A DNA stretch of 64,000 bases. Source: Rhynchopus sp. YZ270_cl-10. Its lineage: Eukaryota. The position numbers were made by a program, and so were the translations under genes. The notes beneath the pieces were generated by a model. It did no database searches and had not been told where the DNA came from. It saw only the letters and a list, made by a program, of their open reading frames with translations. This document shows, in pieces, positions 22,065 to 64,000 of this stretch (its first letter is position 1; the number at the start of each line of letters is the position of its first letter). The stretch is from the NCBI GenBank assembly GCA_964035575.1, contig OZ037841.1, positions 1,736,001 to 1,800,000 on the forward strand. The letters run 5' to 3'.

Positions 22065-22285
22065 TATTTTGCAACTGACGCGCTGGAGAGGCCCTGGCCA
22101 AACATGGCGTGTTAGGGGAAATATATTCGTCGCACAGATTAGATCAGAGACCCCACCCGATATGTTTCTCATTTTACCTCTTTTGTGCTCCGCCACCGAC
22201 ACTCCCATTTTCTGTACTTCAGGCAATAATCATATACCATCACACACTGACACAGTCCGCGTGTGCTGGAAACAATCAATTTTTT

Positions 22286-22355
<70 letters not shown>
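22065..22355 (+). repeat. Split direct repeat A1 (ends in ~69-nt poly-A)
   Basis: Matches 26596-26860 except for poly-A length (~43 nt there). Confidence 0.92.
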
Positions 22356-22358
<3 letters not shown>

Positions 22359-22404
22359 TTTCAGAAACAATACAGAAACAGAAAAAGCAGGGGAGATACA
22401 GAAG

Positions 22405-22731
22405 AAAAAGCAAAAGCAGGGACTACGAGCCATACTCTAAAAGGATACAGAAGTAAAAAGCAAAAGCAGGGACTACGAGCCATACTCTAAAAGGATACAG
22501 AAGTAAAAAGCAAAAGCAGGGACTACGAGCCATACTCTAAAAGGATACAGAAGTAAAAAGCAAAAGCAGGGACTACGAGCCATACTCTAAAAGGATACAG
22601 AAGTAAAAAGCAAAAGCAGGGACTACGAGCCATACTCTAAAAGGATACAGAAGTAAAAAGCAAAAGCAGGGACTACGAGCCATACTCTAAAAGGATACAG
22701 AAGTAAAAAGCAAAAGCAGGGACTACGAGCC
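22405..22731 (+). repeat. 50-bp tandem repeat (~6.5 copies) in the element's 5' leader
   Basis: Unit AAAAAGCAAAAGCAGGGACTACGAGCCATACTCTAAAAGGATACAGAAGT recurs with period 50. Confidence 0.95.
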
Positions 22732-22776
22732 CAGAGAGGAGCCAGGGACCACGAGCCCTTTTTTCAAACCGTCAAC

Positions 22777-23823
22777 ATGGCCCTTACCCGGGACGACTTC
22801 CCCGCCAACGCGCACGACGTTGAGTGGGCGCAGGTGGAGGTGGGCAGAGCAGAGGGGCAGCCGGCAGAGGCGGCGGCGGGATGCGTGTTCCCGAGCTGCG
22901 CCACGGTGCACGGAGGAGGCGCAAACTGCTGGCGCTGCGGCCACCGAACTACGGTGACATGCATCCGCAACGTACTCCCGCAGGGCCAAACACGCACGGA
23001 GTTCACGGATGGCATTCTGGAGTTGGGGTGGTCGTGTCCAGTGTGTGAGTGGATACGCGCTTTCGCGATCCCACTGGACGACGCCGTGAGCAACGCTTCT
23101 GACCCGGCACCGGATATCCCAGCACAGCAGAACGCAGCACAACAGCAGCAACAACCACAGAACGCACCACAACAGCAGGACATGATGGTGATCCTGATGC
23201 AGATGAGGGACCAGATGGTTGCGTTGAACGGCAGGATGACGGCGTTGGAGGAACAGCGAAACCTCGCACTACCCCAGGGTTTCCATGCAGAGGTGGTCGG
23301 GACATGGAAAAACGTACACGTACCCCAGGTGAAGACACTGATCAGGACGGAAGTCAGCAAAGTATTCAAAGAATACGCACTTCCTGCAAACCTTGATGTG
23401 GCCCGCGAGCACGAGGTAGAGATGAGACGCAATTTCGATTTCCTCGACACCACTCTAAACGCTTTAAAACCAAACCCAGCAGACAACGGGGGGACGATGG
23501 CGGTGTTGCACAGGGTAGTGGTGACCATGTCCGCCTCCACCCATCTGGGCATATACGGCAGGAACATCCGTCTGACGTACGAGAAGAGGGCAAACGGCTA
23601 TCTCCCCGAAGCTTTCACCGTGCAGCTGCAGACGCGTATGTTGGAGCAGCTGGTAGAGGCGGGGAAGAATAAAAAGAAGGAGTACAACCGAAACAACGAC
23701 CGAGGCACCACGGGGGGTTACCGAGGGGACACAAACCAAAACGACAGGAAGAGGGACTACGACCGTACCAGCGACCGACGCACCGAGAACCAGGGAAAGG
23801 GGGGACGCGGGGGGAAGAACTGA
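22777..23823 (+). CDS. Gag-like ORF1 of YR retrotransposon 1
   Basis: 348 aa; first ORF after the leader; Cys-rich N-terminus (CVFPSC, CWRC, CPVC), Q-rich and coiled-coil middle, R/G-rich basic end. Gag assignment is positional. Confidence 0.75.
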   Translation: MALTRDDFPANAHDVEWAQVEVGRAEGQPAEAAAGCVFPSCATVHGGGANCWRCGHRTTVTCIRNVLPQGQTRTEFTDGILELGWSCPVCEWIRAFAIPLDDAVSNASDPAPDIPAQQNAAQQQQQPQNAPQQQDMMVILMQMRDQMVALNGRMTALEEQRNLALPQGFHAEVVGTWKNVHVPQVKTLIRTEVSKVFKEYALPANLDVAREHEVEMRRNFDFLDTTLNALKPNPADNGGTMAVLHRVVVTMSASTHLGIYGRNIRLTYEKRANGYLPEAFTVQLQTRMLEQLVEAGKNKKKEYNRNNDRGTTGGYRGDTNQNDRKRDYDRTSDRRTENQGKGGRGGKN

Positions 23824-23838
23824 CTGCCCTACGCGCAG

Positions 23839-24789
23839 ATGCTCTTTCCTCCCCCCAGCGAAAGAGGCAGAAAACGACAACACGAGACCCCCCTCACAAA
23901 CAAACAGGAAAATACAATAATTCAATCGACTCAGACAACCCTCGCCCGATGCTTAGCGGAGTCCTCCTGGAAGAGCCTCCAAAGCACGTGTCGGCGATAC
24001 TTCGAATTCAAAAACGCTTGGGAGGAGAAACACACATGCACAATCTCACACGAAGTGGCGCTCATATATTGGGTGGAAAAGAAAAGGTCTTTAGACGGAG
24101 TCACGGAGAGTTCGGCGCTGCAATATACGATGGACGTGACGGCGGCGTTACGGCGGACAGGGGACGCACGCCTGGCGGAGTCCCAAATGGTGCAGGATTA
24201 TCGTCGGAGTCTGCGAAGGATGGGAGCACTGATGCCGGGCAAGCAGGCCAAGCCAGCACGTCCCTCCGAAGTCGCATCGGCGATCGAGCTGGAGAAGAAG
24301 CCGTTGATACGTTTAGCACTGGCTATGTGTTGGGTGACGGCGGGGAGGGCGTCGGACGTGCTGCGACTCAAGAAGCAGGAGATCACCATCAGACCAGACG
24401 GAGTGGTGGCAGTGCATTGGAGGGAGACCAAAGGAGATCCTTTCCAGCTGGGACGCTTCACGGGCCACCATCTCACAAAAACAGCGCAGGAAATTTTAGT
24501 ACAACGACTGCAAGCTGTCCGCGATCAGCAAGGTTTGGTTTTCCCACCAGGGATAACATCGCACCAACTCGGAGCCGCACTACAGAGAGTCAACAGGGAG
24601 CTGTCGTCGCACTCACTGAGAAGAGGGGCTGCGCAGTTCCTCCTGAAACAGAAGGTGCCCCTCGACGAAATATGCCTCCTCACCCGCCACCAAACAACGG
24701 AGTCTCTGATCCGATACGTCGCAGAAGCGGGACTACAGAGGGTGGACGTGACGGCAACCATGTCGCAGCAGCTGCAGGCAGCCATGTGA
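23839..24789 (+). CDS. Tyrosine recombinase of YR retrotransposon 1
   Basis: Catalytic residues in order: AGRASDV (R), TKGD (K), SHSLRRGAA (HxxR), TRHQT (H), LIRYV (Y). Confidence 0.93.
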   Translation: MLFPPPSERGRKRQHETPLTNKQENTIIQSTQTTLARCLAESSWKSLQSTCRRYFEFKNAWEEKHTCTISHEVALIYWVEKKRSLDGVTESSALQYTMDVTAALRRTGDARLAESQMVQDYRRSLRRMGALMPGKQAKPARPSEVASAIELEKKPLIRLALAMCWVTAGRASDVLRLKKQEITIRPDGVVAVHWRETKGDPFQLGRFTGHHLTKTAQEILVQRLQAVRDQQGLVFPPGITSHQLGAALQRVNRELSSHSLRRGAAQFLLKQKVPLDEICLLTRHQTTESLIRYVAEAGLQRVDVTATMSQQLQAAM

Positions 24790-26474
24790 AGTACTTGCTC
24801 CAGGGGAAGATACCTGGCGTACCATGGATCCCAGGGGAAAAGACACGCTACAATCCAGAGGACGAAAAAGACATGGGGCCGGGTTTGGAGGCGCTATACA
24901 ACGATGTCCTCGCAGTGTCGGTGAATGGAAAGCTGTGCAGACCACCCCGTGTGCGCGGTATTCCAGAAGACGACTACATCGCGCCAATATGCGCCGGTTT
25001 CATGGACATGCGAAAGCTGCAGGAGTTGGACGTGACAGGTGAACTGCAGGGAGTGATTGATCTGATCACAGATCCAAAAAGCTTTTACACGCAGTTCCTG
25101 GAAGGGGCTCTAGAGAACGTAAGATACGACACACATTTCCGGAAAAAGATCTCACGAAATCTCATGCACCACCTAAAAGCGCTGAAGGACTATAACGTGT
25201 TGGAGGAAGTGGATCAGGAACCCACCGTCGTACTGCACGGATTCACAGTGGAGAAGAAGTCGGGAGGGAGAAGGTTTGTTCTGGATGGCAGAAAGCTAAA
25301 CGACTGCATGCGGCACCCACCGGACATGTGGCTCCCGCGAATGCCCCAGGTGATACATCAAATTCTACAAGCCAACTGGGTGGTGAATACAGACGGGAAG
25401 AGCTGGTTTTACCAGTTTCCGGTGCACCCAGACATCAGGGACTTCTTCGGGGTAAAAGTAGCACCACAGCGAGGAGAGTTCGTGACCACAAGACTAAAAG
25501 CTCTGTGCATGGGGTGGAAGTTCGCCCCGTGCATTGCGAACCGAGCGGCGAGAGTACTGTTGCCACCGTCAGAGGGCGTCACGTGGGTTGACAACTTCAT
25601 TGTCACCGCAGACACGGAGGATGAGGCGACCAAGCAGTTTCAAAAATTCCTCTCCCGATGCAACGCTGTGGACGCGAAGATGACTTTGGACGAGAAAGGC
25701 TACGGGGTACCCACACAACTTTTTGAAACTTTCGGCGTCTCTTTCGACCTCAGACACCATATTTATCGTTCAGACCCGGAGTGGATTAAGAAATTTTTAG
25801 CGAATAGTGCACACGCGAAGGTAACCGGAGGGATGGCAACCCCTAGGGAAATCTACAAGGTGGTCGGGGGCATGGTGTGGCACTCATATATTACAAACTC
25901 TTTTCTATGTTTCCTACCCGCGACACTGAGCTTCATGAGAGACATCGCTCGAGACTTATACAACACGGCTGCATGGGACACGCCTACAGCAGTGCGCCCT
26001 TCGGTGGTGAAGGAAGTAAAGGAGAGGACGATACGTATTAAGGAAAATCCATGGATTGAACGGGGACCAACATCATCTATCACAGCATGGTCCGATGCTT
26101 CCTCGAAGGCGTGGGCGGCGATCCTTGAGTCAGAACCGCAGCAGGTGTCACAGGCGGATTTCTCTAACGAGCAGGAACACTGGCATATATACAGGAAGGA
26201 ACTTTACGCGGCAAAGCAGGCCGTAGCACTTGCGGCAAGATCGGTACATACTACGCGACTCAGGCTGATGGTCGACAACCTCCCGGCTGTACACAGCCTC
26301 CAGAGGGGCCACTCTTCAGACTACCGCTCAAATTTCGTGATCGCCGAACTTTTCACCCTAGCGGCCGGCGCCCGCATCCAAGTCGCATGTGAATGGGTAC
26401 CGACGTTGGAGCAAAAAGCAGACAAGTACACGAGAGGCGTGGTGGCAGACTACCCGATCACACTACCGGTTTAG
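23949..26474 (+). CDS. Reverse transcriptase / RNase H of YR retrotransposon 1 (true start uncertain)
   Basis: RT motifs RFVLDGRKLN, TDGKSWFYQF, LCMGWKFAP, TWVDNF, FGVSFD; DIRS-type RNase H motifs WSDASS, HIYRKELYA, VDN, WVPTLEQKADKYTR. Confidence 0.92.
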   Translation: MLSGVLLEEPPKHVSAILRIQKRLGGETHMHNLTRSGAHILGGKEKVFRRSHGEFGAAIYDGRDGGVTADRGRTPGGVPNGAGLSSESAKDGSTDAGQAGQASTSLRSRIGDRAGEEAVDTFSTGYVLGDGGEGVGRAATQEAGDHHQTRRSGGSALEGDQRRSFPAGTLHGPPSHKNSAGNFSTTTASCPRSARFGFPTRDNIAPTRSRTTESQQGAVVALTEKRGCAVPPETEGAPRRNMPPHPPPNNGVSDPIRRRSGTTEGGRDGNHVAAAAGSHVKYLLQGKIPGVPWIPGEKTRYNPEDEKDMGPGLEALYNDVLAVSVNGKLCRPPRVRGIPEDDYIAPICAGFMDMRKLQELDVTGELQGVIDLITDPKSFYTQFLEGALENVRYDTHFRKKISRNLMHHLKALKDYNVLEEVDQEPTVVLHGFTVEKKSGGRRFVLDGRKLNDCMRHPPDMWLPRMPQVIHQILQANWVVNTDGKSWFYQFPVHPDIRDFFGVKVAPQRGEFVTTRLKALCMGWKFAPCIANRAARVLLPPSEGVTWVDNFIVTADTEDEATKQFQKFLSRCNAVDAKMTLDEKGYGVPTQLFETFGVSFDLRHHIYRSDPEWIKKFLANSAHAKVTGGMATPREIYKVVGGMVWHSYITNSFLCFLPATLSFMRDIARDLYNTAAWDTPTAVRPSVVKEVKERTIRIKENPWIERGPTSSITAWSDASSKAWAAILESEPQQVSQADFSNEQEHWHIYRKELYAAKQAVALAARSVHTTRLRLMVDNLPAVHSLQRGHSSDYRSNFVIAELFTLAAGARIQVACEWVPTLEQKADKYTRGVVADYPITLPV

Positions 26475-26542
26475 CAGCGGAGCGTAATCCCATTCATCGT
26501 TCGCGCGGCGTCCCTTCGATCCGAGGGTCCTTAGGGTCCTGA

Positions 26543-26816
26543 GTGGAAGCGTGCAATGCAACAAACGGTCGAGATCTGATCAAGCGAAACGGATATATTT
26601 TGCAACTGACGCGCTGGAGAGGCCCTGGCCAAACATGGCGTGTTAGGGGAAATATATTCGTCGCACAGATTAGATCAGAGACCCCACCCGATATGTTTCT
26701 CATTTTACCTCTTTTGTGCTCCGCCACCGACACTCCCATTTTCTGTACTTCAGGCAATAATCATATACCATCACACACTGACACAGTCCGCGTGTGCTGG
26801 AAACAATCAATTTTTT

Positions 26817-26863
<47 letters not shown>

Positions 26864-26931
26864 TGTCGGCAGGTGGAAGCGTGCAATGCAACAAACGGTC
26901 GAGATCTGATCAAGCGAAACGGATATATTTT
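26543..26931 (+). repeat. 3' split-direct-repeat block B1-A2-B2
   Basis: GTGGAAGCGTGCAATGCAACAAACGGTCGAGATCTGATCAAGCGAAACGGATATATTTT occurs at 26543 and 26873, flanking the A2 copy. Confidence 0.92.
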
Positions 26932-27551: not shown

Positions 27552-28612
27552 TACTTTTTGGTTCCACATTTCTGCGCAGGTTCTTCTGATTTCCTATTAC
27601 AAACGGTCTTTTGCGAGGTGACTACGTGAATGCTTACGTTCCTTCCCAAGATTTCATTTCGTTTCCCCCTCCCCTCTGAAACGGTGTCCCACAGTGTTCT
27701 CGAATTGTGTCCACCTTTTGAAAAATTTGGAATACACAAAAACCTGCACGTGTGGTGACCACCTGCGTAGATGTCACACAACATAGCCATTATTATCAAA
27801 CTGTTTAATGTGAAGCACGTGAGACACCTTTATTTTTTAATTTCCTCCCATTGGCTGCAGGGGTATGCAGGACTATTCTGTTTTGTCCTCAGGGAGGTGA
27901 ACGTCCCTGCCCCTCAATGCAAAGTCTCGACCCAACCTTTTGGTGTTCTTTACATACAGTGCGACGCGGCGAAGTCGGCCTCAGACGTGGCTGAGGCGTA
28001 CTCGGGAATACTTACGTTTAAGTGCGCCTCAAAATAAACTCAGACGTACCTGAGGCGTTAATCGTAAGTGATACCGAGCACGCCTCAGGCACGTCTCAGA
28101 TGTATTTTCCGGCCAGGCCACTTTTAAGGCGTACTAGGCCTCCTGCATTGTATGAAATTATGTATACTTTTAGTTGTTATTTTTTTTGAGACTGGGGATC
28201 CTGTGTCCCTTGTCTCATGATGGTGTGCCGTGCTGTGAAGAGTGCTGGATAATGCCTCCTTCTTAAATTGGGTCTTACAGGCTGGTGAGAAGGGAAGGGG
28301 GTTTTCTCGGCACACTGACCCTGCGACAATGTGCAGGCAGGCAAACAGAACAGACACAACTTCAAAGTGAAGGCGCTTCACTGATTAAGAAAGGATGGTT
28401 TGGTACTGATAAAAAAATGACAGTAGTTTTTTTCTTTACACCCTTTGCACCCACCCCTGCCCATATTTCCTGCAAATGCATTTCTGTACCGAGCTACCTT
28501 AACCTCTACTTGATTGTCTCGAGTCCCGTTTTCTATTATTCCTTCAAACATTTCACAACAGGTTTTTTTCGAACAGGGGACCAGCCCCCTGCCTGCACTC
28601 TTTCTTCATTGC

Positions 28613-40800: not shown

Positions 40801-41368
40801 CACGAATGTGTTTGCGTGACCCGCGAACGTCACTACAGAGCTTTGTACTATACCACTCCTTCTTTGTGTAGGCAGTTTTTTGCGTTGTTGTTGGTCTTTT
40901 TCTGGTTCCGAGCCTGCCAAGATGTCAGTTCTTGAAGCAGGTGAGGACTAAAGGGCACCTGGGAATATGTCACTCTCTCGGCGAGAATGTGCCCCAGATG
41001 CCCTTCATCTTTCATATGTCTGCCCACCCGACATAAGAGTCACCCCGCCTTGTGATATCTTTATTGATGCTCAGTCGGAGGCAGCTCCCATGTAATACCT
41101 TCCTAAGAATCATTTATGTCTTTCAGAAGTTTGTTTGTGTGTCGGGTGGTACTTTTCTGCTTGTTTTGTTCACCGAATGTGTACACACCTGTGGGGCACA
41201 TTCATCTTTCACATTTTATCTATCTGTCAACGACTAGAGGTAAATACATAAAGCACATCGCCTATCTTTTTTGACATGTTCCTCTCTTCACATCTTCACA
41301 CACCCACATCAACAGATACATGGGTTGGGCCTTCCTCCCACAAACAACGCTGCTGCAGCAACAGAACA

Positions 41369-46748: not shown

Positions 46749-46975
46749 ATGCGAGGACACACCATGTACGCCGCAGTCGTCTTTTTACTGCTTGTGTGTG
46801 AAGTGGTGTCGCAGACTGAATTGTCGTGCACTAGGGTCGTTATGACTGGTGCAGTTTACAAACAAGGATAACAGACAGCTTCCACTGCCGCCCACTGAAG
46901 AGTCTTGGTTGACATGGACGTTGTCATTAACGCATACACCAATTACGGGCGGGTTGTTTAGTTTTGCGAACGCAT
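46749..46975 (+). pseudogene. Degenerate 5' fragment of a LamG-type paralog
   Basis: Same leader and signal peptide as paralogs 4 and 6 (MRGHTMYAAVVFLLLVCEVVSQ), then frameshift, stop at 46869-46871 and deletions in the domain sequence. Confidence 0.8.
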
Positions 46976-47183
46976 GGTCGACACAGGTTTTGATACTGGG
47001 ATAGCTAACCGCCCCTTGTTTGGCCTGTCTGCAGCGTTGCACCGAAGGTGCACGAAGACAAGCCAAGGCATTAGCATCATACCTGTTCAAATCAAAACCA
47101 CGTTTTCATTTTTCACTTCAGAACATAACCACCCTCTCTGTACCCCACCCACCCTTCACAGATTCAACACGCAAACCACAACA

Positions 47184-53155: not shown

Positions 53156-53204
53156 CGGAAATTGACCAAAAACGAGAACTGTACTGTACTGTACTCCCAA
53201 TCCC

Positions 53205-53452
53205 CTGTGTATACTGTGTATACTGTGTATACTGTGTATACTGTGTATACTGTGTATACTGTGTATACTGTGTATACTGTGTATACTGTGTATACTGTGT
53301 ATACTGTGTATACTGTGTATACTGTGTATACTGTGTATACTGTGTATACTGTGTATACTGTGTATACTGTGTATACTGTGTATACTGTGTATACTGTGTA
53401 TACTGTGTATACTGTGTATACTGTGTATACTGTGTATACTGTGTATACTGTG
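53205..53452. repeat. (CTGTGTATA)n 9-bp satellite, ~27 copies
   Basis: Perfect tandem array. Confidence 0.97.
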
Positions 53453-53970
53453 CAGTGTGAGAAAATTGTTCATGTATGTACTCAGAACTTGTCCATTTCG
53501 GCAAATTGACCCCACCACAGCGAGGACGGATTCCGGAAATGACAATGCAGGTGTTTAAAAACTTCACCAACGAGAAAAAGGCTCACGCCGGTGGGAAAAA
53601 AAGTGCCTCACCTCCCAACGCCCGCCAACACCTCCCAACGCCTCCCAACACCTCCCAACGCCTCCCAACACCTCCCAACACCTCCCAACAGCCAGCTAAT
53701 TCAGGTGGTCATTTCATATTTTGTGAAAATAAACCAAGAACTTGTCCATTTCGGAAAATTGATCTCATCACAGAACGGACAGATTCCGAAAATGCAATCA
53801 TGTTTCGCGTTGTCTTGTGGCACAATACTGCAGAAATGGCACCTTGCTCTTTGATGTCTTTCAAGTCGCACATATGACTTTCATCATCCTCACACATCCA
53901 CACGCCCACATCAACAGATACATGGGTTGGGCCTTCCTCCCACAAACAACGCTGCTGCAGCAACAGAACA

Positions 53971-56900
53971 ATGCGAGGACACACCATGTACGCCGCAGTC
54001 GTCTTTTTACTGCTTGTGTGTGAAGTGGTGTCGCAGCCGACTGAAATACCGTGTGATCGGGCCGTTGTGACTGTGGTGCAGTTCACAGACAAGGATAACA
54101 TTCAGCTCCCCGTGCCGCCAACTGAGGAGACACTGTTTGGGGGTGTGATTCAGGTTGACATGGACGTTATTATCAATGCATACACCACATATGGTCGTTT
54201 TGTGGAGTTTGCAAATGGTCAGAGCAGCGACAACTTTATGATTGGACAGTTCGGAACTGCAGGGGAAATGTACGTATCTTCCACTTGGTCAACAAAGCGG
54301 CAACGTGTTGCTTACAGTACCCCCTTGCCGTTGGGACAGAAGTTTCACGTTCGGGTCGTTGTTGTCCCCATTGACACTGCGACAGCAAACTACTACTTAT
54401 ATCTTGATGGCACGCTTGTAGCCGACGGCGTCAGTGAGGCACTCAGATACGTCACTCGCTCCATGTTATTGATTGGCACAAGTACCTTTTATAATGCCCC
54501 TACCACCCCCCATGTCGACCTCGACGGGAGTGTCACTGATGGTATCCTGAAAATGTGTCCTGAAGCTACACCTGCACCACCTACAGCTATTCCTACTGTC
54601 GCACCTACAGCAGTGCCCACAGCAGTGCCCACAGCAGTGCCCACAGCAGTGCCCACAGCAGTGCCCACAGCAGTGCCCACAGCAGTGCCCACAGCAGTGC
54701 CCACAGCAGTGCCCACAGCAGTGCCCACAGCAGTGCCCACAGCAGTGCCCACAGCAGTGCCCACAGCAGTGCCCACAGCAGTGCCCACAGCAGTGCCCAC
54801 AGCAGTGCCCACAGCAGTGCCCACAGCAGTGCCAACAGCAGTACCGACAGCAGTGCCAACAGCAGTGCCCACAGCAGTGCCCACAGCAGTGCCCACAGCA
54901 GTGCCCACAGCAGTGCCCACAGCAGTGCCCACAGCAGTGCCCACAGCAGTGCCAACAGCAGTGCCCACAGCAGTGCCCACAGCAGTGCCCACAGCAGTGC
55001 CAACAGCAGTACCGACAGCAGTGCCAACAGCAGTGCCCACAGCAGTGCCCACAGCAGTGCCCACAGCAGTGCCCACAGCAGTGCCCACAGCAGTGCCCAC
55101 AGCAGTGCCCACAGCAGTGCCCACAGCAGTGCCCACAGCAGTGCCCACAGCAGTGCCCACAGCAGTGCCGACAGCAGTGCCAACAGCAGTGCCAACAGCA
55201 GTGCCAACAGCAGTGCCAACAGCAGTACCGACAGCAGTGCCAACAGCAGTGCCCACAGCAGTGCCCACAGCAGTGCCCACAGCAGTGCCCACAGCAGTGC
55301 CCACAGCAGTGCCAACAGCAGTACCGACAGCAGTGCCAACAGCAGTGCCCACAGCAGTGCCCACAGCAGTGCCCACAGCAGTGCCCACAGCAGTGCCCAC
55401 AGCAGTGCCCACAGCAGTGCCCACAGCAGTGCCCACAGCAGTGCCAACAGCAGTGCCAACAGCAGTGCCAACAGCAGTGCCAACAGCAGTGCCAACAGCA
55501 GTGCCAACAGCAGTGCCAACAGCAGTGCCAACAGCAGTGCCAACAGCAGTGCCAACAGCAGTGCCAACAGCAGTGCCCACAGCAGTGCCAACAGCAGTGC
55601 CCACAGCAGTGCCAACAGCAGTGCCAACAGCAGTGCCAACAGCAGTGCCAACAGCAGTGCCCACAGCAGTGCCAACAGCAGTGCCCACAGCAGTGCCAAC
55701 AGCAGTGCCAACAGCAGTGCCAACAGCAGTGCCAACAGCAGTGCCAACAGCAGTGCCCACAGCAGTGCCAACAGCAGTGCCCACAGCAGTGCCAACAGCA
55801 GTGCCAACAGCAGTGCCAACAGCAGTGCCAACAGCAGTGCCAACAGCAGTGCCAACAGCAGTGCCAACAGCAGTGCCAACAGCAGTGCCAACAGCAGTGC
55901 CAACAGCAGTGCCAACAGCAGTGCCAACAGCAGTGCCCACAGCAGTGCCAACAGCAGTGCCCACAGCAGTGCCAACAGCAGTGCCAACAGCAGTGCCCAC
56001 AGCAGTACCAACAACAGTGCCAACAACAGTACCCACAGCAGTACCAACTGCAGTGTCAACAGCTGAACCTACTGCGCTACCGACTAATTTGCCCACAGCT
56101 GAACCCACAGCAATCCCAACTGCAGCACCTACAGCAACTCCAACAACACCTGCACCACCAACACTTGCACCTCACACTACCACACCACCGACAGTACCAC
56201 CTGCAACACCAGCACCAACAGAGACGACAACAGCACCACTGCTGCGAGACACACCGACAAGCGGTATCAAAGTGTCTGTGAAGGAAGACCTGAAGAAGGC
56301 GAACACGGCTGCTGGTGCTGCAGCAGTTCTGGGTGGTGGTGCAGGGAATGCAGGGAAGTTGGCTGTGCTGAACGGCTTTGGCTGTCAAATGGACGACGTG
56401 GATGTGGGTGACGAGCCACTGGACTGGGAGTTCCACCCGACAACGATATCACTTGGGAGTGCAGTTGGGCGGTACAAGCTTGCGGCGATGGTGATGAACC
56501 CTGTGGTTGTGGTGTGCATTGCGCTGCTGGTGCTGTGTGCAGCTGCAGTCATGCAAGCAACACTGGGGTACGGACGTGAGAAGGCCATCAGTGTGACACG
56601 GTTTCCTGGGATACTGTACGTCCCATACCTGTTCTTGCTGCAGGGGACAAGCCTTGTGGCGGCACAGGTTGTGTTTGACCCTTCACGCTACCCAACAATG
56701 GTTGCAGTGCTTTCGTACGTGACACTGGCACTGTGTCTGCTGTCGCCTGTGCTGCTGTACACCGCTGTGCTGCGCCATGTGAAGAGAGAGGCGGAGCTCT
56801 TTCCAGACCCTGCGATTGTGGGGAACCCAGCGACAGGCGAGCCTGGGAAGCGTTCCACCAGTTCTGTGTACAAATTTGCGTTTGGGACAGACATCTGGGT

Positions 56901-57711
56901 GTCACGACAGAGCTACTTTGCAGAGAAGTACGGGAACTGCTTTGAGAACGTGAAGCCGACGTGTCTGTGGTACATCCTGTGTGAGCTTGCGGTGATTCTG
57001 TGTCTGTCGCTGTTGTCTGGATGGCAGCCAACCTCTGTTGGGTCTTGCAACACACGCAACATCTTCATCACGATTCTGCTGGTGCTGTTCTTTGTTGCAA
57101 CAGTTGTCAAACGTCCGTTCTTGGCTGCGATGGACAACTTGATTGCTGTTGTGCTGAGCCTGTTGCTTGCGTCTGCAGTGTTGGGGATGACGATAGCTAT
57201 TGCGGCAGAGTCATCTAAGGACAGTGCACTGTACGCAATCAGCAGTGTGTGTCTCTTGGTCTCTGCACTGATGGTGATGGTTAAGTGTTTGTGGGACTTT
57301 GGGATCTACGCCATGGATGTGCTGATCTCACGTCGCAGTGGTGCGCGTGAACAGGCGAGGTGTCAGGAAACGGGTTTACACAACGCTCTTGAGACTGAGC
57401 TCGTGTCGGATCTCGCACGCAGCCCGTCGCAGTCGTCATTTGCAGAGCGGTCGTGTATTCAGCCTTCGTCTGTTCTGATGGGGAGCAGCAGTAGGTCGTC
57501 ATACACAACACCGTTGCTTGATGTACTGCAGATGCGCGATGTGGTGTGCCTCTCCAACGTGGGAGTGTCAGGCTCTTTGACACACTCCTCTCGAGGTGAC
57601 GTACCGTTGTTTACTAGTGAACGTGCAGCAGCGCTGCTGCCTGTAGACGACTCCGCAAGAAGGAAGCAGATGCGCGATCTGCGCTTCCACCGGGAGAGAA
57701 TGTGGCTGTAG
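53971..57711 (+). CDS. Multi-TM surface protein, paralog 6: signal peptide, one LamG-like domain, (PTAV)n stalk, ~7-TM core
   Basis: 1246-aa ORF; its domain is a diverged version of domain 1 of paralog 4; conserved TM core. Confidence 0.9.
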   Translation: MRGHTMYAAVVFLLLVCEVVSQPTEIPCDRAVVTVVQFTDKDNIQLPVPPTEETLFGGVIQVDMDVIINAYTTYGRFVEFANGQSSDNFMIGQFGTAGEMYVSSTWSTKRQRVAYSTPLPLGQKFHVRVVVVPIDTATANYYLYLDGTLVADGVSEALRYVTRSMLLIGTSTFYNAPTTPHVDLDGSVTDGILKMCPEATPAPPTAIPTVAPTAVPTAVPTAVPTAVPTAVPTAVPTAVPTAVPTAVPTAVPTAVPTAVPTAVPTAVPTAVPTAVPTAVPTAVPTAVPTAVPTAVPTAVPTAVPTAVPTAVPTAVPTAVPTAVPTAVPTAVPTAVPTAVPTAVPTAVPTAVPTAVPTAVPTAVPTAVPTAVPTAVPTAVPTAVPTAVPTAVPTAVPTAVPTAVPTAVPTAVPTAVPTAVPTAVPTAVPTAVPTAVPTAVPTAVPTAVPTAVPTAVPTAVPTAVPTAVPTAVPTAVPTAVPTAVPTAVPTAVPTAVPTAVPTAVPTAVPTAVPTAVPTAVPTAVPTAVPTAVPTAVPTAVPTAVPTAVPTAVPTAVPTAVPTAVPTAVPTAVPTAVPTAVPTAVPTAVPTAVPTAVPTAVPTAVPTAVPTAVPTAVPTAVPTAVPTAVPTAVPTAVPTAVPTAVPTAVPTAVPTAVPTAVPTAVPTAVPTAVPTAVPTAVPTTVPTTVPTAVPTAVSTAEPTALPTNLPTAEPTAIPTAAPTATPTTPAPPTLAPHTTTPPTVPPATPAPTETTTAPLLRDTPTSGIKVSVKEDLKKANTAAGAAAVLGGGAGNAGKLAVLNGFGCQMDDVDVGDEPLDWEFHPTTISLGSAVGRYKLAAMVMNPVVVVCIALLVLCAAAVMQATLGYGREKAISVTRFPGILYVPYLFLLQGTSLVAAQVVFDPSRYPTMVAVLSYVTLALCLLSPVLLYTAVLRHVKREAELFPDPAIVGNPATGEPGKRSTSSVYKFAFGTDIWVSRQSYFAEKYGNCFENVKPTCLWYILCELAVILCLSLLSGWQPTSVGSCNTRNIFITILLVLFFVATVVKRPFLAAMDNLIAVVLSLLLASAVLGMTIAIAAESSKDSALYAISSVCLLVSALMVMVKCLWDFGIYAMDVLISRRSGAREQARCQETGLHNALETELVSDLARSPSQSSFAERSCIQPSSVLMGSSSRSSYTTPLLDVLQMRDVVCLSNVGVSGSLTHSSRGDVPLFTSERAAALLPVDDSARRKQMRDLRFHRERMWL
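54604..56055 (+). repeat. Coding 12-bp tandem repeat, (PTAV)n stalk
   Basis: Mostly CCC-type units in the 5' half and CCA-type units in the 3' half. Confidence 0.95.
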
Positions 57712-58769: not shown

Positions 58770-59010
58770 GGTATGGCAGGGTTTGGCATGGTATGGCAGG
58801 GTATGGCACGGTATGGCGCGGTTTGGCACGGTATGGCAGGGTATGGCAGGGTGTGGCACAGTGTGGCACGGGTAGCCATTACCCAGTACCCAGTACCCAG
58901 TACCCAGTACCCAGTACCCAGTACCCAGTACCCAGTACCCAGTACCCAGTACCCAGTACCCAGTACCCAGTACCCAGTACCGGGAGGGTATGGCATGGTA
59001 TGGCAGGGTA
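58770..59010. repeat. Compound satellite: degenerate (GGTATGGCAG)n interrupted by (ACCCAGT)n at 58881-58981
   Basis: Tandem 10-mers and ~14 perfect 7-mers. Confidence 0.9.
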
Positions 59011-59229
59011 TTGAAAAAGTTTGTTTCAATGGTGTGGCGCCTTAACCGATTCCCCGTGTTTCTACCGGTTGTCGCTCCGTAAAGGGGGGTTCCAGATGTT
59101 GGAATTTTTTTTTTTTGTTTTCGTTGGTGAAGCTTTTAAACGGCGGTATTTGCATTTCCGGAATCCGTCCGACCAGTGGTGGGGTCAATTTGCCAAAATG
59201 GACAAGTTCTCGTTTTTGGTCAATTTCCG

Positions 59230-59367
59230 CAGTATACACAGTATACACAGTATACACAGTATACACAGTATACACAGTATACTGTGTATACTGTGTATAC
59301 ACAGTATACACAGTATACACAGTATACACAGTATACACAGTATACACAGTATACACAGTATACACAG
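59230..59367. repeat. (CAGTATACA)n 9-bp satellite with a short internal inversion
   Basis: Reverse complement of the 53205-53452 unit; orientation flips around 59278-59300. Confidence 0.92.
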
Positions 59368-59762
59368 GAATAGCTTTAGCCTACTCAAAAATGTTCCTTT
59401 ATTTTTTCTTTTAATCATATACTTGCAAAAAGACGTTGGGGTAAATCGGCTAGGCCGAGCTAGTCGAATCCGCTGGAGGCGGAGGTGAGGGAGGGAGGGA
59501 AAATACAAAAGCTTTTACGACACAAAAAGCTGAAAGGGAAAACCACCCGAACCTAATTCAGTGATGGTACGTGGTTGGCGAGGAGGTTTCCCGTTGAACA
59601 ACAACCCCAAAAAGCAAGGGGGGTTTTTGGGGGGTTACACGTTTTAGTTTCGGCTTTGCTATTCCCTCGGTAAACCCCAAGAATAGCTTTAGCCTACTCA
59701 AAAATGTTCCTTTATTTTTTCTTTTAATCATATACTTGCAAAAAGACGTTGGGGTAAATCGG

Positions 59763-62612
59763 CTAGGCCGAGCTAGTCGAATCCGCCCCGACGCCAGTAA
59801 AGAACAACCGCACCGCACGTTGGACCTCAAACATGAGGTTGGGAGAGGAGAGGGAGGAAGGGGGAACACGAGAGGGTTTGTCAGCAGGGTTGAGCTTGGT
59901 ACTGATCCACTGTAATGAAATTGTACACCACAAGTGCTCCAAACGCGCAAGAGCTTGCACCACCGCGTCATTCAGAATCTTGGATGCCGTACAAATTTTC
60001 TTCCGGGCCACACCCACCACAGAAGTGTTGTCAACCCAGATATCCACCTTACCACCGGCCGCGGAGTCGGGAAGGGCGGCTATAGTGTTACGCAACGCAA
60101 GAGCTTCCAGCACATTAATGTGTAGCTCAGACTCCTGGGAGTCCCAACTAGCACCTACAATAGTCATTTCGTTGCTACGGCGGTCCACAATGACACCGCC
60201 CCAACCCTTCAGAGAAGCATCAATAAAAACAGCAAGGGAAGAATGGGGGGAGGGGGGCTTAAAAACACGCGGCATACACACAGCGGAGCGCCAACTGGCT
60301 AACTCCTTACGCACCGAAGCAGGGATAACAATAGAGTCGCTGGGCAGACGTCTGCCCGCATTGAGAGCGTTCGAAATACGCCTCAAAAACTTCACCGTAA
60401 ACCAAAACTTTCCCGGAAAGACCCCCGCAATGGCGGTGGCGTGCAGCAGTCTGCCCGCCAGGGACTCCAAAGAACTCGCAGATGCAACACTTAACTCAAG
60501 GGAAAAAATTTTGTCCAACAGTTTGGGAGAGGGGGTCACTGAACTGGACGTATGCTTAAAATCAACACCAATAAACACATATGACTCACTAGCCGTGACA
60601 GAGTCCTCCGGCTTCCACGTAATCCCACAGCTGCTGGCGCGAGAGTCCATCCGCTTCGTTGCAGCAACTACGTCGTCACGCGACCCACACAAGCGCACCC
60701 CATCGATCCACGTATGCACGGTCACTCCCTGCGCGACGTGCTTCTCTTGGACATATGCGGGGTCGCCTCCGATCACTGCTGTGATGGTGTGCATGAGCTC
60801 TGGGGCGCAGGAGTGACCCATCGGTAGTCTCGTCAGCTCCCACCAAACACCATTGTCGTCCGTGTAGCGGAAGTAGCGGCGAGACTCAGTTGGGATTTCG
60901 ACCTGGAAAAACCCGCATCGCAGGTCGCGAACACTACCACACTCCTTCTCAACCGCAGACAAGTACCTCGACACATGACCCAGAGGCACCTGAGCTTCAT
61001 AGCCGGCAGCATCCAAGACGTCATTGGCCTCACGAGTCCAGAGGATGAATCGTTGGCGGAGACCTGTGGGCTTCTCTTCCACAACAGTGAAGGGGATGTT
61101 GCAGCATACTCCGGGTCCGTCTGCACGCACAGCTATGCCTGTATCCTGGAGTACAGCGGCGTGTTCTGCACTCAGACGAGAAGGATGTGCAGAAGCCTCT
61201 CCTGACAGCTCCGTGGGGTAGAAAGCTGCCTGCCAAACCTCGTTGAACCTGTCCAGGATGGCAGGACGCATCATGCCTTTGACTCTGCTCAATACCAAGG
61301 GGGACACGTTCACAGCATGCAGGGGGGAGGCCCGTTCTTCGTCCGTGCAGGGGAGGCGGGTGTGTTGGGACCGCTTGGTGATGCGGTGTTGCTTGCGGGC
61401 GAACTTGTCCACCATCACAGCCATTTCGTCACGTCCTGCGTGCCGATTGCTTTCGCCAGAGCGACTGGGTCCCCTGCGTACCTGATGGTGGTGGGCGACA
61501 GCGCAACCTCCACCTTGTGCTTCGCCAGCACGGAAATGAGGGAGGGGTTCACGGGCTTTTTCTCCGCCAGCAACGACAGGAGATGGGTCACTGCCCCTCT
61601 CTTGATGCTGTGCCCCGAGAATGAGGTCATCCCTGGCGTGTGGTGCCACTTCTCCGTCAGCGCCTCGGTGGTGGTCTCCGTGAGGTAGCGGAAGGGCTTC
61701 AGCCGTCCGTAGAGGGACGCAATTTTCTCCGTGAGCGCGCCTGTCACCACTACCAACTTCGACGGCGTGAAGGGGTCCCCCCGGCGCCCCTTCGGTAGGG
61801 TGTGCCAATCCACTATCACCTCTGTGGGCGTCACCTTCACAAACTGCTCTGATCCCAACTTCTGCACTTCGTCCCAACGGCTGGCCGTTTTCCAAGCTAG
61901 CATTGCGCAGAGGCACAGGTCGTTCTGCTGGTGCTCTGTCCACTGGAGGAGGGTTCTGCGAGGAATCGGGGTGGCTTGGCTTGTGGGAATTGCCGCCCCT
62001 GCGGCCCGCAGCGCTGCTGCAAAGCTGAGCAGCGGTTGGTTGCCCAGGCCGATGTGGGTGAAGGTGCCTGATAGGGCCTTGGCGTAGGTGAGCTGCCCTT
62101 GCTTTGACACTTGAGTGGCAAGGACGAACAACACCGCTGTGTCGGCTGTCATCGGCAGCTGGTGCAGGCCCGTCCACACTGCGAACCTGGACCACAGGTA
62201 TTTGCGTTGTTGCGACGTGCGCTTGGCCCACATGTCCTCCACCACGCCTAGCAGCCACTCGGTCGCTTGCTTCGGGTTGACCTCTGTCTCCTTCACTCGA
62301 GATATGGGACGCACCCGCCCGGAGGTGGCTACATGCGTCAGTACGGCCTCTCCAAAAAGAGATGGGGGGGTAATACCGGGATGGGGGTAGGGATCTGTGT
62401 GGTGTGGTATGTGTGTTGGGGGGGGGCTGCGCGGCGGCATTGCTGCTGGGGGCTGCAGTGACCCTTGACTTGGCGGGGAGGCGGGCGGGCACAGCTGCAT
62501 CGGAGGTGGACACCTTCGTTTGTACACGCGCGTTGGTGGGGCGGTTGGGACAATGGGAATAACTTGCTGGGGATGTACAGGGGGGGCGGGCCGAGAAGAG
62601 GGGGGGAGTCAC
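59763..62612 (-). CDS. Reverse transcriptase / RNase H of YR retrotransposon 2 (true start uncertain)
   Basis: RT motifs RQRFILW, RDLRCGFFQV, RLPMGHSCAP, TWIDGV, FIGVDF; RNase H motifs FIDASLKGWGG, HINVLEALA, WVDNT, WISTKLNPADKPSR. Confidence 0.92.
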   Translation of the reverse strand: MTPPLFSARPPCTSPASYSHCPNRPTNARVQTKVSTSDAAVPARLPAKSRVTAAPSSNAAAQPPPNTHTTPHRSLPPSRYYPPISFWRGRTDACSHLRAGASHISSEGDRGQPEASDRVAARRGGGHVGQAHVATTQIPVVQVRSVDGPAPAADDSRHSGVVRPCHSSVKARAAHLRQGPIRHLHPHRPGQPTAAQLCSSAAGRRGGNSHKPSHPDSSQNPPPVDRAPAERPVPLRNASLENGQPLGRSAEVGIRAVCEGDAHRGDSGLAHPTEGAPGGPLHAVEVGSGDRRAHGENCVPLRTAEALPLPHGDHHRGADGEVAPHARDDLILGAQHQERGSDPSPVVAGGEKAREPLPHFRAGEAQGGGCAVAHHHQVRRGPSRSGESNRHAGRDEMAVMVDKFARKQHRITKRSQHTRLPCTDEERASPLHAVNVSPLVLSRVKGMMRPAILDRFNEVWQAAFYPTELSGEASAHPSRLSAEHAAVLQDTGIAVRADGPGVCCNIPFTVVEEKPTGLRQRFILWTREANDVLDAAGYEAQVPLGHVSRYLSAVEKECGSVRDLRCGFFQVEIPTESRRYFRYTDDNGVWWELTRLPMGHSCAPELMHTITAVIGGDPAYVQEKHVAQGVTVHTWIDGVRLCGSRDDVVAATKRMDSRASSCGITWKPEDSVTASESYVFIGVDFKHTSSSVTPSPKLLDKIFSLELSVASASSLESLAGRLLHATAIAGVFPGKFWFTVKFLRRISNALNAGRRLPSDSIVIPASVRKELASWRSAVCMPRVFKPPSPHSSLAVFIDASLKGWGGVIVDRRSNEMTIVGASWDSQESELHINVLEALALRNTIAALPDSAAGGKVDIWVDNTSVVGVARKKICTASKILNDAVVQALARLEHLWCTISLQWISTKLNPADKPSRVPPSSLSSPNLMFEVQRAVRLFFTGVGADSTSSA
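61415..62527 (-). CDS. Tyrosine recombinase of YR retrotransposon 2
   Basis: TASRWDEV (R), LPKG (K), GHSIKRGAV (HxxR), LAKHK (H), TIRYAG (Y); the frame is open back to the gag stop (62608). Confidence 0.92.
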   Translation of the reverse strand: MYKRRCPPPMQLCPPASPPSQGSLQPPAAMPPRSPPPTHIPHHTDPYPHPGITPPSLFGEAVLTHVATSGRVRPISRVKETEVNPKQATEWLLGVVEDMWAKRTSQQRKYLWSRFAVWTGLHQLPMTADTAVLFVLATQVSKQGQLTYAKALSGTFTHIGLGNQPLLSFAAALRAAGAAIPTSQATPIPRRTLLQWTEHQQNDLCLCAMLAWKTASRWDEVQKLGSEQFVKVTPTEVIVDWHTLPKGRRGDPFTPSKLVVVTGALTEKIASLYGRLKPFRYLTETTTEALTEKWHHTPGMTSFSGHSIKRGAVTHLLSLLAEKKPVNPSLISVLAKHKVEVALSPTTIRYAGDPVALAKAIGTQDVTKWL

Positions 62613-64000
62613 TGTTTCCCCTTCCCGGCCTTCCCGTTTCCCGGTGGGCCGGTCTTCTGTCCATGCGCTGCCGCACCGCCTTTGCCTCCCTTGTGTGATT
62701 TTGGAGGAGGGCGCGTCTGCACATACCGAGCCACTTCATGTCCCGGAGTCGACTGTGCGGTGGCACGGGTGATGTCCTTGCGAGGGACACGCTCTGACGC
62801 GAAAGCGTATTGTATGTGTAACTCCCGAAGAAGCATGTTGCCGAGGACGCGGTGGGGGGTGCCCTTCCACGACGGCGTCCACTCCGCAGCCAGTATCCAC
62901 ATACGCATCCACTGAAACGTCAACTGCAGGGCCGCCCCCCCCGGTCCATGCTTCAATCCAGACACAAAGTACTGGTTGAGCTCCAAGATGAGGCCCGCCG
63001 AGTCGTTGCGGATACGGTCCGCCCACTCCTCGACCGTCTCCGCCACCACTGGGTCTTTGACCCACATGTCGAGCTCGTCTGTAGGTTGTGGGTTGGTGCG
63101 TGGTGGTAGCGGTCCGTTCTCAGCCACAGCATCGTGCCAGAGCCCGTCGTCCGCCACGTCCGTCTTTACCCGTGTGTAGGTGGGGGCCGTGTGTGTGTGT
63201 GTGTGTGATGAGGACTGCGACACCTTCAGTCGGTCCACCTCGGCTTGCAGCTCCCTCATCTGCACCTCCATCGAACTGTTGATGCCGCTCTGCAGGCGGG
63301 CATCTTCCTCCTGCTGCCGGTTCGCCTGGCGGAGGCGGGCAATCTCCGCGTCGCGCTGCGCAAGTGCGGCTTCTGCGGAACTCCGGATCGAGCTCGCCTC
63401 CTTCTCCGCCGCTTCTGCCTGGTGCCCCATCTTCTGGCGGGCCTGCTCTGTCTGATGCAGAGACAGCGCCACAATGCGCGTGTAGCGCCATCCGGCCACA
63501 GGCAACGCCACCAACTCATCACCTCCCTCATGGGGCACACAGCCCTCTGCGACGTTGTTGTAGCAACTGCTGCGCACAAGACCAAACACCTTATTCCCCA
63601 GGCCAACCAGCTTGCCTGCGTGGTGGAGGGTCTCCTTCCCTCCAGGGGGGTACCCGGAGATCACCACCTCCTGCCCAAGGAGCACCTGCGCCTGCTCACC
63701 CAGCATCCATTCTTTCATCTGCTGGGGTGCGGGCACGTCGCCTTGACCGGCGGAGGCATGGGGTGTGCCCTTCCGCGCCTCCGCAAAAGCAAACTGACTC
63801 TTGGACCTGCAAACGGGCACAGGTTCCTCATCCGCCTCGTCAGAAGAAGAGCGAACCCTCAGGGCGTGGATGGCTCCCACCATCTTCATCAGATTCCAGT
63901 CCGGTCGCACATCGGCTTCGCAGAACTCACGCAGGTACACCGTCAACACATTCTCCGCGACAGTGTCCCCCGTCCACGCTGCCACCACCGCCTCAAAGGT
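62609..64000 (-). CDS. Gag-like ORF1 of YR retrotransposon 2 (5'-truncated by window edge)
   Basis: >459 aa open to the edge; coiled-coil middle and G/K-rich basic C-terminus, like ORF1 of element 1. Gag assignment is positional. Confidence 0.72.
   Translation of the reverse strand, partial: TFEAVVAAWTGDTVAENVLTVYLREFCEADVRPDWNLMKMVGAIHALRVRSSSDEADEEPVPVCRSKSQFAFAEARKGTPHASAGQGDVPAPQQMKEWMLGEQAQVLLGQEVVISGYPPGGKETLHHAGKLVGLGNKVFGLVRSSCYNNVAEGCVPHEGGDELVALPVAGWRYTRIVALSLHQTEQARQKMGHQAEAAEKEASSIRSSAEAALAQRDAEIARLRQANRQQEEDARLQSGINSSMEVQMRELQAEVDRLKVSQSSSHTHTHTAPTYTRVKTDVADDGLWHDAVAENGPLPPRTNPQPTDELDMWVKDPVVAETVEEWADRIRNDSAGLILELNQYFVSGLKHGPGGAALQLTFQWMRMWILAAEWTPSWKGTPHRVLGNMLLRELHIQYAFASERVPRKDITRATAQSTPGHEVARYVQTRPPPKSHKGGKGGAAAHGQKTGPPGNGKAGKGKQ

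Follow-up and report, generated by a model that had tools for sequence, protein, structure and literature searches.

The gag end of a tyrosine recombinase (YR) retrotransposon on the minus strand of the window (the whole 64,000-nt stretch of DNA analysed here) carries a candidate recoding junction, at which a -1 slip likely yields a Gag-X-RT/RNase H fusion and readthrough of the gag UGA probably yields Gag-YR; both events taken together are, in our judgement, an evenly balanced proposition. In the mechanism that we propose, most ribosomes would terminate at the UGA and make Gag. Some would slip by -1 on the heptamer G_GGA_AAC before a predicted hairpin, at Gly-Asn, giving the junction ...PPGN/REGREGETVTPP, and would then translate the -1 frame of YR, a poorly conserved spacer of ∼400 residues, before reaching RT/RNase H. 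Part of the unshifted ribosomes would read the UGA as sense and continue into YR, with help from the leakiness of the stop and from the bases 3′ of it, and not from the hairpin. As fusions, both enzymes would enter the Gag particle at a low ratio, without a protease.

The element and its gag-end junction

Judged by its sequence, the element is a VIPER-like YR retrotransposon, and its host is probably a diplonemid. The ORFs stand in the VIPER-like order gag-like, YR, RT/RNase H, with the RT/RNase H ORF overlapping YR (Table 1). Of the split direct repeats A1...B1-A2-B2, both B1 and B2 were found, and the 5′ end of the element, where A1 would lie, is beyond the window. In a quick tree of 47 rows the RT falls with the T. 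cruzi VIPER RT (P0099) and not with DIRS1-like RTs (SH-aLRT 94, with a long-branch warning). The YR ORF opens with a Pro-rich linker of ∼86 codons, so that the conserved part of YR begins near codon 87 behind the gag stop, and the catalytic pattern R, H..R, H/W, Y appears as R158, H247, R251, H278 and Y291, all invariant or nearly so in 27 rows. The YR profile matches Cre weakly (E 0.006), and Pfam Phage_integrase matches 1 of the 27 YR rows, that of element 1, a second and distant YR element in the window whose gag stop is TGA-CTG and whose repeats A1..B1-A2-B2 are present. The gag-like ORF (first in-frame ATG at 63889, tail basic and Gly/Lys-rich) had no family match in a Pfam search and is called gag by position only, while methyltransferase, protease and DDE integrase gave no Pfam match at E 0.1, a weak test for so divergent a protein.

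Table 1. Positions of the minus-strand element, its junction and element 1 in the window
Feature	Position	Strand	Remarks
Gag-like ORF	62609..64000	minus	463 codons in window, open at window edge
Slippery heptamer G_GGA_AAC	62636..62642	minus	gag phase (...GPPGN)
Spacer, 5 nt	62631..62635	minus	
5′ arm of predicted 13-bp stem	62618..62630	minus	
Gag stop TGA	62609..62611	minus	context TGA-CTC; in 16-nt loop 62617-62602
3′ arm of predicted stem	62589..62601	minus	inside pyrimidine tract
Pyrimidine tract, then AG	62567..62608	minus	possible trans-splice acceptor
YR ORF	61415..62608	minus	397 codons, gag frame
X region	61425..62636	minus	-1 frame across linker and YR
Two RT-frame ATGs at YR stop	61413..61424	minus	61424-61422 and TGATG overlap 61417-61413
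RT/RNase H part of -1 ORF	59763..61424	minus	whole -1 ORF 62735-59763
Split direct repeat B1	59678..59786	minus	109 nt
Candidate A2 repeat	59474..59677	minus	between B1 and B2; inferred from repeats and VIPER pattern
Split direct repeat B2	59365..59473	minus	99% identity to B1
Element 1	22065..26931	plus	layout same as minus-strand element
Element 1, gag	22657-23823	plus	
Element 1, G_GGA_AAG	23793-23799	plus	
Element 1, in-frame YR	23824-24789	plus	
Element 1, -1 ORF	23673-26474	plus	

An earlier, sequence-only reading of this DNA had described the heptamer, the spacer, a 13-bp stem with two G-U pairs and the TGA in its loop, and every coordinate holds. Its claim of a stop-free -1 frame into RT/RNase H was also confirmed (990 codons, with RT/RNase H at the end). 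It had further let the 0 frame run on for 27 sense codons into the YR ORF: an in-frame ORF does lie behind the TGA, but codon 28 is GUG and the first AUG is codon 37 (62500). The junction letters are identical in contigs from three of four sequencing runs, from two studies, one of them possibly the window's own source; in the contig of the fourth run (X3), two bases are missing in the C run near 62600.

The stimulatory structure of -1 frameshift signals sits ∼5–9 nt downstream of the heptamer, and here a predicted structure follows a phased X_XXY_YYZ at a spacer of 5 nt, with an open, conserved -1 ORF leading to a functional domain. GGGAAAC is among the most shift-prone heptamers (PMC5009743). 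A second GGGAAAC at 62620-62614 was rejected as a slip site for being out of phase, and a loop-to-downstream pseudoknot was rejected when folding gave just a broken duplex of -8.7 kcal/mol.

Taken alone, the junction signal is weak and within chance. With a tail as rich in Gly, Lys and Asn as this one, the chance of a strict heptamer within the last 30 gag codons is P=0.11. The stem, at -23 kcal/mol and with predicted pair probabilities of 0.62–1.0, reaches a z of -1.16 against dinucleotide shuffles, 25 of 200 of which were equally good; shuffling the arms separately gave p=0.018, and the junction fold is among the element's most stable 50-nt windows (fraction 0.002 of 419). Across both strands of the whole window there are 28 strict heptamers with a hairpin of -20 kcal/mol or below, GGGAAAC being one of the 28. 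The case rests on the relatives and not on this single site.

The -1 frame and the heptamer in relatives

The X region runs for 404 codons with no stop and no Met. Among 13 loci with both YR and RT, 11 have no stop in the -1 frame over YR, against 3.0–28 expected by synonymous permutation; L002 and L007, which have no junction, are counted solely for their open -1 frame, and L008 was dropped as the same element as L009. For the minus-strand element the count is 0 against 4.2 expected (P=0.0095). The two exceptions are also depleted (L011 with 1 stop against 21.6 expected, L013 with 2 against 10.9), and in the +1 frame over YR stops are about as expected in the seven loci tested.

The sequence-only reading had proposed conservation of the heptamer's phase in VIPER-like families as a check, and most junctions show it. 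A strict phased heptamer is present in 7 of 10 computed junctions (L013 and L017, in which no junction is recognisable, are left out) and, by eye, in 5/5 published VIPER types, T. cruzi included, where a text search found it in 6/6 copies. The background rate is 8 in 10412 codons, and the 5/7 among the first seven elements has P=4e-5 with the tail amino acids held fixed. Three different strict heptamers occupy the same place in elements that are separated by more than one substitution per site. The heptamers of element 1 and L004 are relaxed, and L086, found afterwards, keeps the layout with no strict heptamer and G_GGG_GGA instead.

Pairing across the gag stop exceeds arm-wise shuffles in the first seven elements (combined p=0.002; YR-stop control p=0.40), while singly it is not significant in element 1, L005, L016, L003 and L011. 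In 8 of the 10 computed junctions the stop lies within a predicted structure, weakly so in L005 and not in L011, and by eye this is the case in T. cruzi also. The viral contigs searched contained no relatives with RT or YR alignments. In a sister subfamily, the stretch from heptamer to YR is a net 51 nt shorter and the frame is kept. The recurrence of this layout in deeply diverged relatives makes -1 frameshifting likely, and that it would yield Gag-X-RT/RNase H we hold with good confidence.

The sister subfamily's alignment at the junction has a 1-base gap at 62618 and four differing letters; by eye, pairing between the purine run and its replaced 3′ letters would still be possible.

Routes to the YR protein

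For the YR protein we lean towards readthrough of the gag UGA, which would yield Gag-YR. Nine gag stops comprise seven TGA, two TAG-G and no TAA, against TGA at 5 of 17 YR and RT stops (p=0.038); the L086 gag stop is TGA, as are those of the published VIPER types (5/5). The context is UGA-CU in the minus-strand element, element 1, L005 and L086, UAG-G in L009 and L011, and UGA-A in many relatives. The first in-frame AUG behind the stop, codon 37 in the minus-strand element, is codon 76 in L016, where it comes after the start of the YR profile match, and codon 78 in L005. From gag stop to first AUG the 0 frame is open over 201 codons, but over that length no more than 2.0 (P=0.07) to 5.9 (P=0.003) stops are expected, depending on the null.

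A similar arrangement is seen in 12 DIRS1-like loci, a label given from layout and tree with no reference match. Here the ORF1 stop is followed by a long in-frame ORF ending in YR-like motifs, with TGA-CT at the ORF1 stop in 7/12 vs 0/8 at YR stops, and in 5 of the 12 in-frame ORFs the first Met lies past codon 300. Their RT lies in the +1 frame and imposes no -1 lock on the ORF1-YR phase. The sequence-only reading had counted the in-frame gag-YR phase in its favour, and as evidence of readthrough in VIPER we rejected it: a -1 shift into a frame overlapping YR already fixes that phase, so the phase is uninformative and not independent evidence. The same reading's leaky-stop context does not amount to a type II signal, whose consensus is UGA-CUA/CGG (PMC3159437) and with which UGA-CUC agrees in the first two bases only. 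Local folding gave no stem 3′ of the gag stop of the type II kind (-1.2 kcal/mol), with weak predicted pairing over 160–300 nt. Longer proteins were searched for a natural fusion of Gag with YR and none was found, which is weak evidence. Counting against the model, in the published VIPER table the YR ORF begins more than 100 nt inside ORF1 in 4 of 14 copies (Ribeiro et al. 2019, PMC6681497; PMC12278014).

A live though unlikely alternative is that RT is made by -1 frameshifting and YR comes from a separate mRNA, with a spliced leader at the AG at 62567 and its start at the AUG at 62500, the gag UGA being an ordinary stop. The likely host group trans-splices nearly every mRNA, trans-splicing being general in Diplonema (PMC10161547), and the letters are suitable: a tract with 18 of 20 pyrimidines right behind the gag stop, an AG at +43 and the next AUG in the YR frame. 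Such a tract lies 3–43 nt behind the gag stop in 6 of 7 elements, and frameshifting alone suffices for the gag-YR phase. The tract doubles, however, as 3′ stem arm and Pro/Ser-coding run, and the first AUG after its AG belongs to the RT frame for element 1, L009 and L016 and to the +1 frame for L004; the TGA bias of gag stops is also left unexplained.

Loose read ends at the junction contigs measure 8–255 letters. No spliced leader was recognised among them, which says little since no run is recorded as RNA.

Termination-reinitiation, also live and in our estimate rather improbable, would have ribosomes restart at an AUG near the gag stop to make free YR (in L086 also X-RT) and restart for RT at the TGATG here, as in SART1. 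SART1 and caliciviruses are known to couple a stop with a start in this way, and viral reinitiation has stop and start within 20 nt and declines past ∼30 (PMC10275272). Several relatives fit this picture, with TGA-ATG at the gag stop of L003, L004, L010 and T. cruzi and an AUG no more than 9 codons away in element 1, L009 and L086; L086, without a strict heptamer, has one AUG in the -1 frame, 4 nt ahead of the stop, and another in the YR frame, as codon 2. In the minus-strand element the two RT-frame AUGs at the YR stop could serve a restart for RT, but its nearest AUG is 111 nt from the start of the gag stop codon, and the 404 upstream open codons without Met are not explained by the TGATG. 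An RT start at the TGATG, the alternative that the sequence-only reading had named, proved not to be general: the closest sister RT, P0002, is without both Met, and no RT-frame AUG lies near the YR stop in L004, L005 and L016; by eye, T. cruzi and two copies from C. fasciculata have none there either, and most relatives lack it.

That a single hairpin promotes the -1 shift and readthrough alike, as the sequence-only reading had it, we regard as very unlikely, despite the predicted structures around the stop described above and those of some DIRS1-like loci that lack a -1 frame (L046, z -3.9). When the UGA occupies the A site, the 5′ arm is upstream, inside or behind the ribosome, whereas known readthrough structures start ∼7–12 nt 3′ of the stop. 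A stem that encloses the stop is unwound at decoding and so could hardly stimulate readthrough, and cross-stop pairing is not general in DIRS1-like loci (mean z -0.3). What survives of that claim is the location, and of its three-product model the -1 limb is well supported by conservation and the readthrough limb is plausible. A compositional accident, in which the heptamer arises from the purine-rich Gly/Lys tail, that tail pairs with the Pro-rich linker and YR codon usage opens the -1 frame, would suit the figures of the minus-strand site alone (heptamer P=0.11, stem z -1.2) and is scarcely credible against the family-wide stop depletion, heptamer and pairing statistics and the three different heptamers at one place in such distant elements.

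Known systems and meaning

Kinetoplastid VIPER shares the gag-like/YR/RT-RH order, the RT-YR overlap and the split direct repeats (Ribeiro et al. 2019, PMC6681497; PMC12278014); the minus-strand element differs in coming from a probable diplonemid and in having no CCHC box in its gag tail. For T. cruzi, the published table places ORF1 at 1-1341, ORF2 from 1342 and ORF3 from 1218, and in the portions of these papers covered the three ORFs are treated separately, with programmed frameshifting or readthrough unmentioned. TATE is the sister group, and a L. braziliensis copy has, by eye, A_AAA_AAC directly before the gag stop; it differs in a -1 frame that seems to lead into the YR ORF and in TAA as the stop, both by eye. 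The DIRS1-like loci are also YR elements with an ORF1 stop, mostly TGA-CT, before the in-frame ORF, and differ in the YR at the 3′ end, the RT in the +1 frame, the lack of a -1 heptamer route and a separate RT clade.

Retroviral and LTR gag-pol -1 frameshifting is different, since here ∼400 codons of another gene are crossed first, no protease is found and the 0 frame too runs on into a second enzyme. Type II readthrough (UGA-CUA/CGG) shares UGA-CU with the four elements named above and seven DIRS1-like loci, and type III (UAG-G, as in MuLV) shares UAG-G with L009 and L011; both differ in that no 3′ stimulatory stem lies behind the gag stop here and many relatives have UGA-A. With SART1 and calicivirus reinitiation the element shares TGATG at the YR/RT boundary, and several relatives a stop-adjacent AUG at the gag end, but that TGATG is not conserved and no AUG is near the gag stop of the minus-strand element.

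The literature searched does not address by what means YR retrotransposons express the two enzymes whose frames overlap downstream of gag, and no description of such recoding was found in it. We tentatively suggest, at somewhat less than even confidence, that VIPER-like elements from diplonemids to T. cruzi may derive Gag, Gag-YR and Gag-X-RT from a single mRNA by -1 frameshifting and stop readthrough at one 35-nt junction, with Gag-YR readthrough as an unrecognised rule reaching DIRS1-like elements. A conserved junction would explain why the VIPER RT ORF has ∼950 codons, though RT/RNase H needs ∼550. If true, the model predicts fusion proteins and junction peptides, and gene callers give wrong starts for these proteins. 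Two known recoding events, a frameshift and a leaky stop, would here be put to unusual use, set 24 nt from each other and leading to two different enzymes encoded in overlapping frames, and the junctions would be natural recoding signals for euglenozoan ribosomes.

The gag–YR junction and the element that carries it

In the studied tyrosine recombinase (YR) retrotransposon, a slippery heptamer lies close to the end of a gag-like ORF and is followed, after 5 nt, by a predicted 13-bp stem with two G-U pairs, whose 16-nt loop contains the gag stop. The sequence-only reading had described this arrangement, and its heptamer, phase, spacer, stem and loop stop all proved exact in their coordinates. 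Behind the gag TGA, a 397-codon ORF keeps the gag frame. The -1 frame contains 404 codons without Met, so that it could be entered only from gag or through a non-AUG start. The junction sequence is identical in contigs from three of four sequencing runs, with the fourth lacking two bases in a C run. Taken alone, the studied site proves little: with the amino acids of the gag tail held fixed, a strict heptamer (X_XXY_YYZ in gag phase) arises there by chance with P=0.11, and the predicted stem has a z of -1.16 (p=0.018 with the arms shuffled apart).

Features of the window
Feature	Position	Strand	Remarks
Gag-like ORF stop, TGA	62611-62609	minus	sequence reading
Slippery heptamer G_GGA_AAC	62642-62636	minus	in phase with gag
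-1 frame ORF	opens at 62735	minus	990 codons
Junction stretch; at least two diverged subfamilies with a common YR region	62440-62720		gag tail retained in one, its linker shorter; unrelated sequence upstream of 62577 in another
Element 1	22065-26931	plus	distant YR element, layout as in studied element
Five host ORFs, tandem family	7203-11561, 28514-31717, 41252-44698, 46962-50939, 53878-57711	plus	long Pro/Thr repeats, common multi-pass membrane C-terminus, all stop at TAG
9-nt tandem repeat	59221-59367		adjoins repeat B2 of studied element
Inverted array of the 9-nt unit	53204-53469		5.8 kb from B2-side array
7-nt tandem repeat	~58880-58980		near the 9-nt array
Inverted repeat, ~1 kb	5266-6295 and 19506-20518		98-99% complementary

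Judged by its sequence, the element is VIPER-like, and its homologs make a diplonemid the probable host. The RT/RNase H at the end of its -1 ORF shares ~50% identity with Diplonema papillatum proteins and ~32% with T. cruzi proteins, and in a quick tree its RT clusters with that of T. cruzi (SH-aLRT 94). The middle ORF can be assigned to the tyrosine recombinases from its conserved residues and from a profile that matches Cre, though weakly, and two 109-nt direct repeats follow. Element 1, the second YR element of the window, is complete, with perfect split repeats of 265 and 59 nt and a 50-nt tandem repeat upstream of gag. Its junction pairs a relaxed heptamer, G_GGA_AAG, with the stop TGA-CTG; its RT is very divergent, forming a long branch in the tree, and has no AUG in frame at the YR stop.

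Probable frameshifting into the RT/RNase H frame

Relatives were drawn from a metagenome scan for RT (the best 80 of 233), seven contigs from metagenome-assembled genomes (MAGs) and the two window elements, which together gave 13 loci with YR and RT in this layout; the gag-stop-YR junction is present in ten. L008 was left out as a duplicate of L009, and L087 contains just the YR end. The MAG contigs (L081-L087) are retrotransposon sequences inside genomes labelled bacterial, likely eukaryotic contamination of the bins. Four RT relatives (P0004, P0069, P0031, P0072) have long N-terminal extensions unlike X, the -1 stretch upstream of RT, with no YR match, and are possibly elements without YR at this position.

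Among these 13 loci, 11 carry no -1 frame stop along the YR ORF, where synonymous permutation predicts 3.0-28 (4.2 in the studied element, P=0.0095); L011 has one against 21.6 expected and L013 two against 10.9, with L003 counted only in the part of YR upstream of its break. Stops in the +1 frame were about as expected in the seven loci tested. Certain gag and RT regions also fall below expectation for -1 stops, which tempers the single P values. A phased heptamer at the gag end, sought in relatives as the earlier reading had suggested, is strict in seven of the ten junctions, 21-66 nt upstream of the gag stop: G_GGA_AAC in the studied element, L003, L005, L010 and L016, G_GGT_TTT in L009 and A_AAA_AAC in L011. 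It is relaxed in element 1 and L004, and the L086 junction has no strict one. The recurrence has a combined P of 4e-5 over the first seven elements, L003, L011 and L086 having joined later. By eye, the published excerpts of all five VIPER types (B. saltans, three of C. fasciculata, T. cruzi) show a phased heptamer before TGA and YR in the gag frame, and a text search found the T. cruzi motif in 6/6 published copies. Heptamers of these kinds are named among the most shift-prone on mammalian ribosomes in an excerpt of PMC5009743.

RT could instead start at the TGATG overlap, where AUGs sit at the YR stop of the studied element. These are missing from the 81%-identical sister RT and from L004, L005 and L016, which argues against this start as a general route. 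From predicted proteins alone, X is present in 18 of 63 RT matches with a complete N-terminus, the remainder starting later. The heptamers of the relatives and their stop-free -1 frame support the proposed shift from gag into RT/RNase H, and -1 frameshifting at the junction is, on this comparative evidence, probable.

Possible routes to the recombinase

Since X-RT and YR overlap in a fixed phase, a working frameshift would itself keep YR in the gag frame; this phase is thus no evidence for readthrough, and we discarded it as such. The gag stops of nine loci comprise seven TGA, two TAG-G and no TAA, versus TGA at 5 of 17 YR and RT stops (p=0.038); TGA also ends gag in L086 and in the excerpts of all five published VIPER types. 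The first in-frame AUG after the gag stop of the studied element is codon 37, and not codon 28; it is codon 76 in L016 and 78 in L005. Counting against readthrough, ATG directly abuts the TGA in L003, L004, L010 and T. cruzi, and AUGs lie close to the gag stop in element 1, L009 and L086. At the L086 junction (2725-2840 of that locus), one AUG lies in the -1 frame 4 nt upstream of the gag stop and another, codon 2, in the YR frame; a strong hairpin there places the stop at its loop.

In the studied element, where the nearest AUG is more than 100 nt from the stop, the main options are readthrough and trans-splicing. Readthrough of the gag UGA, as originally proposed, is slightly favored by the lean of gag stops towards TGA, although the studied context falls short of the type II consensus as excerpted from PMC3159437, folding found no structure 3′ of the stop, and the open 0-frame linker is significant under one null only. 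Translation of YR from a trans-spliced mRNA is the less probable option. Pointing to it, and against readthrough, a pyrimidine tract follows the gag stop in six of seven elements, and trans-splicing occurs in the host group (PMC10161547, in part).

A single hairpin had been proposed to serve both events. Predicted structure encloses the gag stop in 8/10 junctions, and across the first seven elements pairing over the stop is better than in arm-wise shuffles, in which the stem arms are shuffled separately (p=0.002; control 0.40); it is not above such shuffles in five loci taken individually. This modelled geometry would suit a frameshift stimulator and not a readthrough stimulator: such structures start ~7-12 nt 3′ of the stop in the published excerpts, and from ribosome geometry the stem must be unwound while the loop stop is decoded. 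A hairpin shared as the driver of both is unlikely.

Related families and the published record

In 12 DIRS1-like loci chosen by layout (L018, L019, L022, L024, L033, L037, L039, L046, L053, L064, L083, L084), an ORF of 728-1029 codons with a YR-like C-terminus continues in frame behind the ORF1 stop, truncated by contig ends in four. TGA-CT occurs at 7/12 ORF1 stops versus 0/8 of their YR stops, making the former candidate Gag-YR readthrough sites; these loci count in favor of the readthrough reading. Unlike in the studied element, RT is in the +1 frame. By eye, the excerpted TATE elements of L. braziliensis and B. saltans (PMC6681497) have a phased heptamer directly upstream of the gag stop, and in L. 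braziliensis the -1 frame apparently runs into the YR ORF.

In the table of Ribeiro et al. 2019 (PMC6681497, in the portions available), the ORFs of T. cruzi abut and overlap, and YR starts inside ORF1 in 4/14 VIPER copies; that main text has no "readthrough", and "frameshift" only of mutations. A literature search covering few subscription papers found no recoding claim for YR elements, nor did excerpts of PMC12278014, PMC3266345, PMC7192593, PMC3783388, PMC9210276, PMC8226300, PMC8310308, PMC13517186, PMC10275272 and PMC5009743. The in-frame ORF1 and YR of DIRS-1 may have been remarked on earlier. Leishmania RNA virus 1 probably uses frameshifting, which would give recoding on kinetoplastid ribosomes some precedent. 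As sequence comparison indicates, the junction is real and conserved within a known element family, and the route to YR may vary between lineages.
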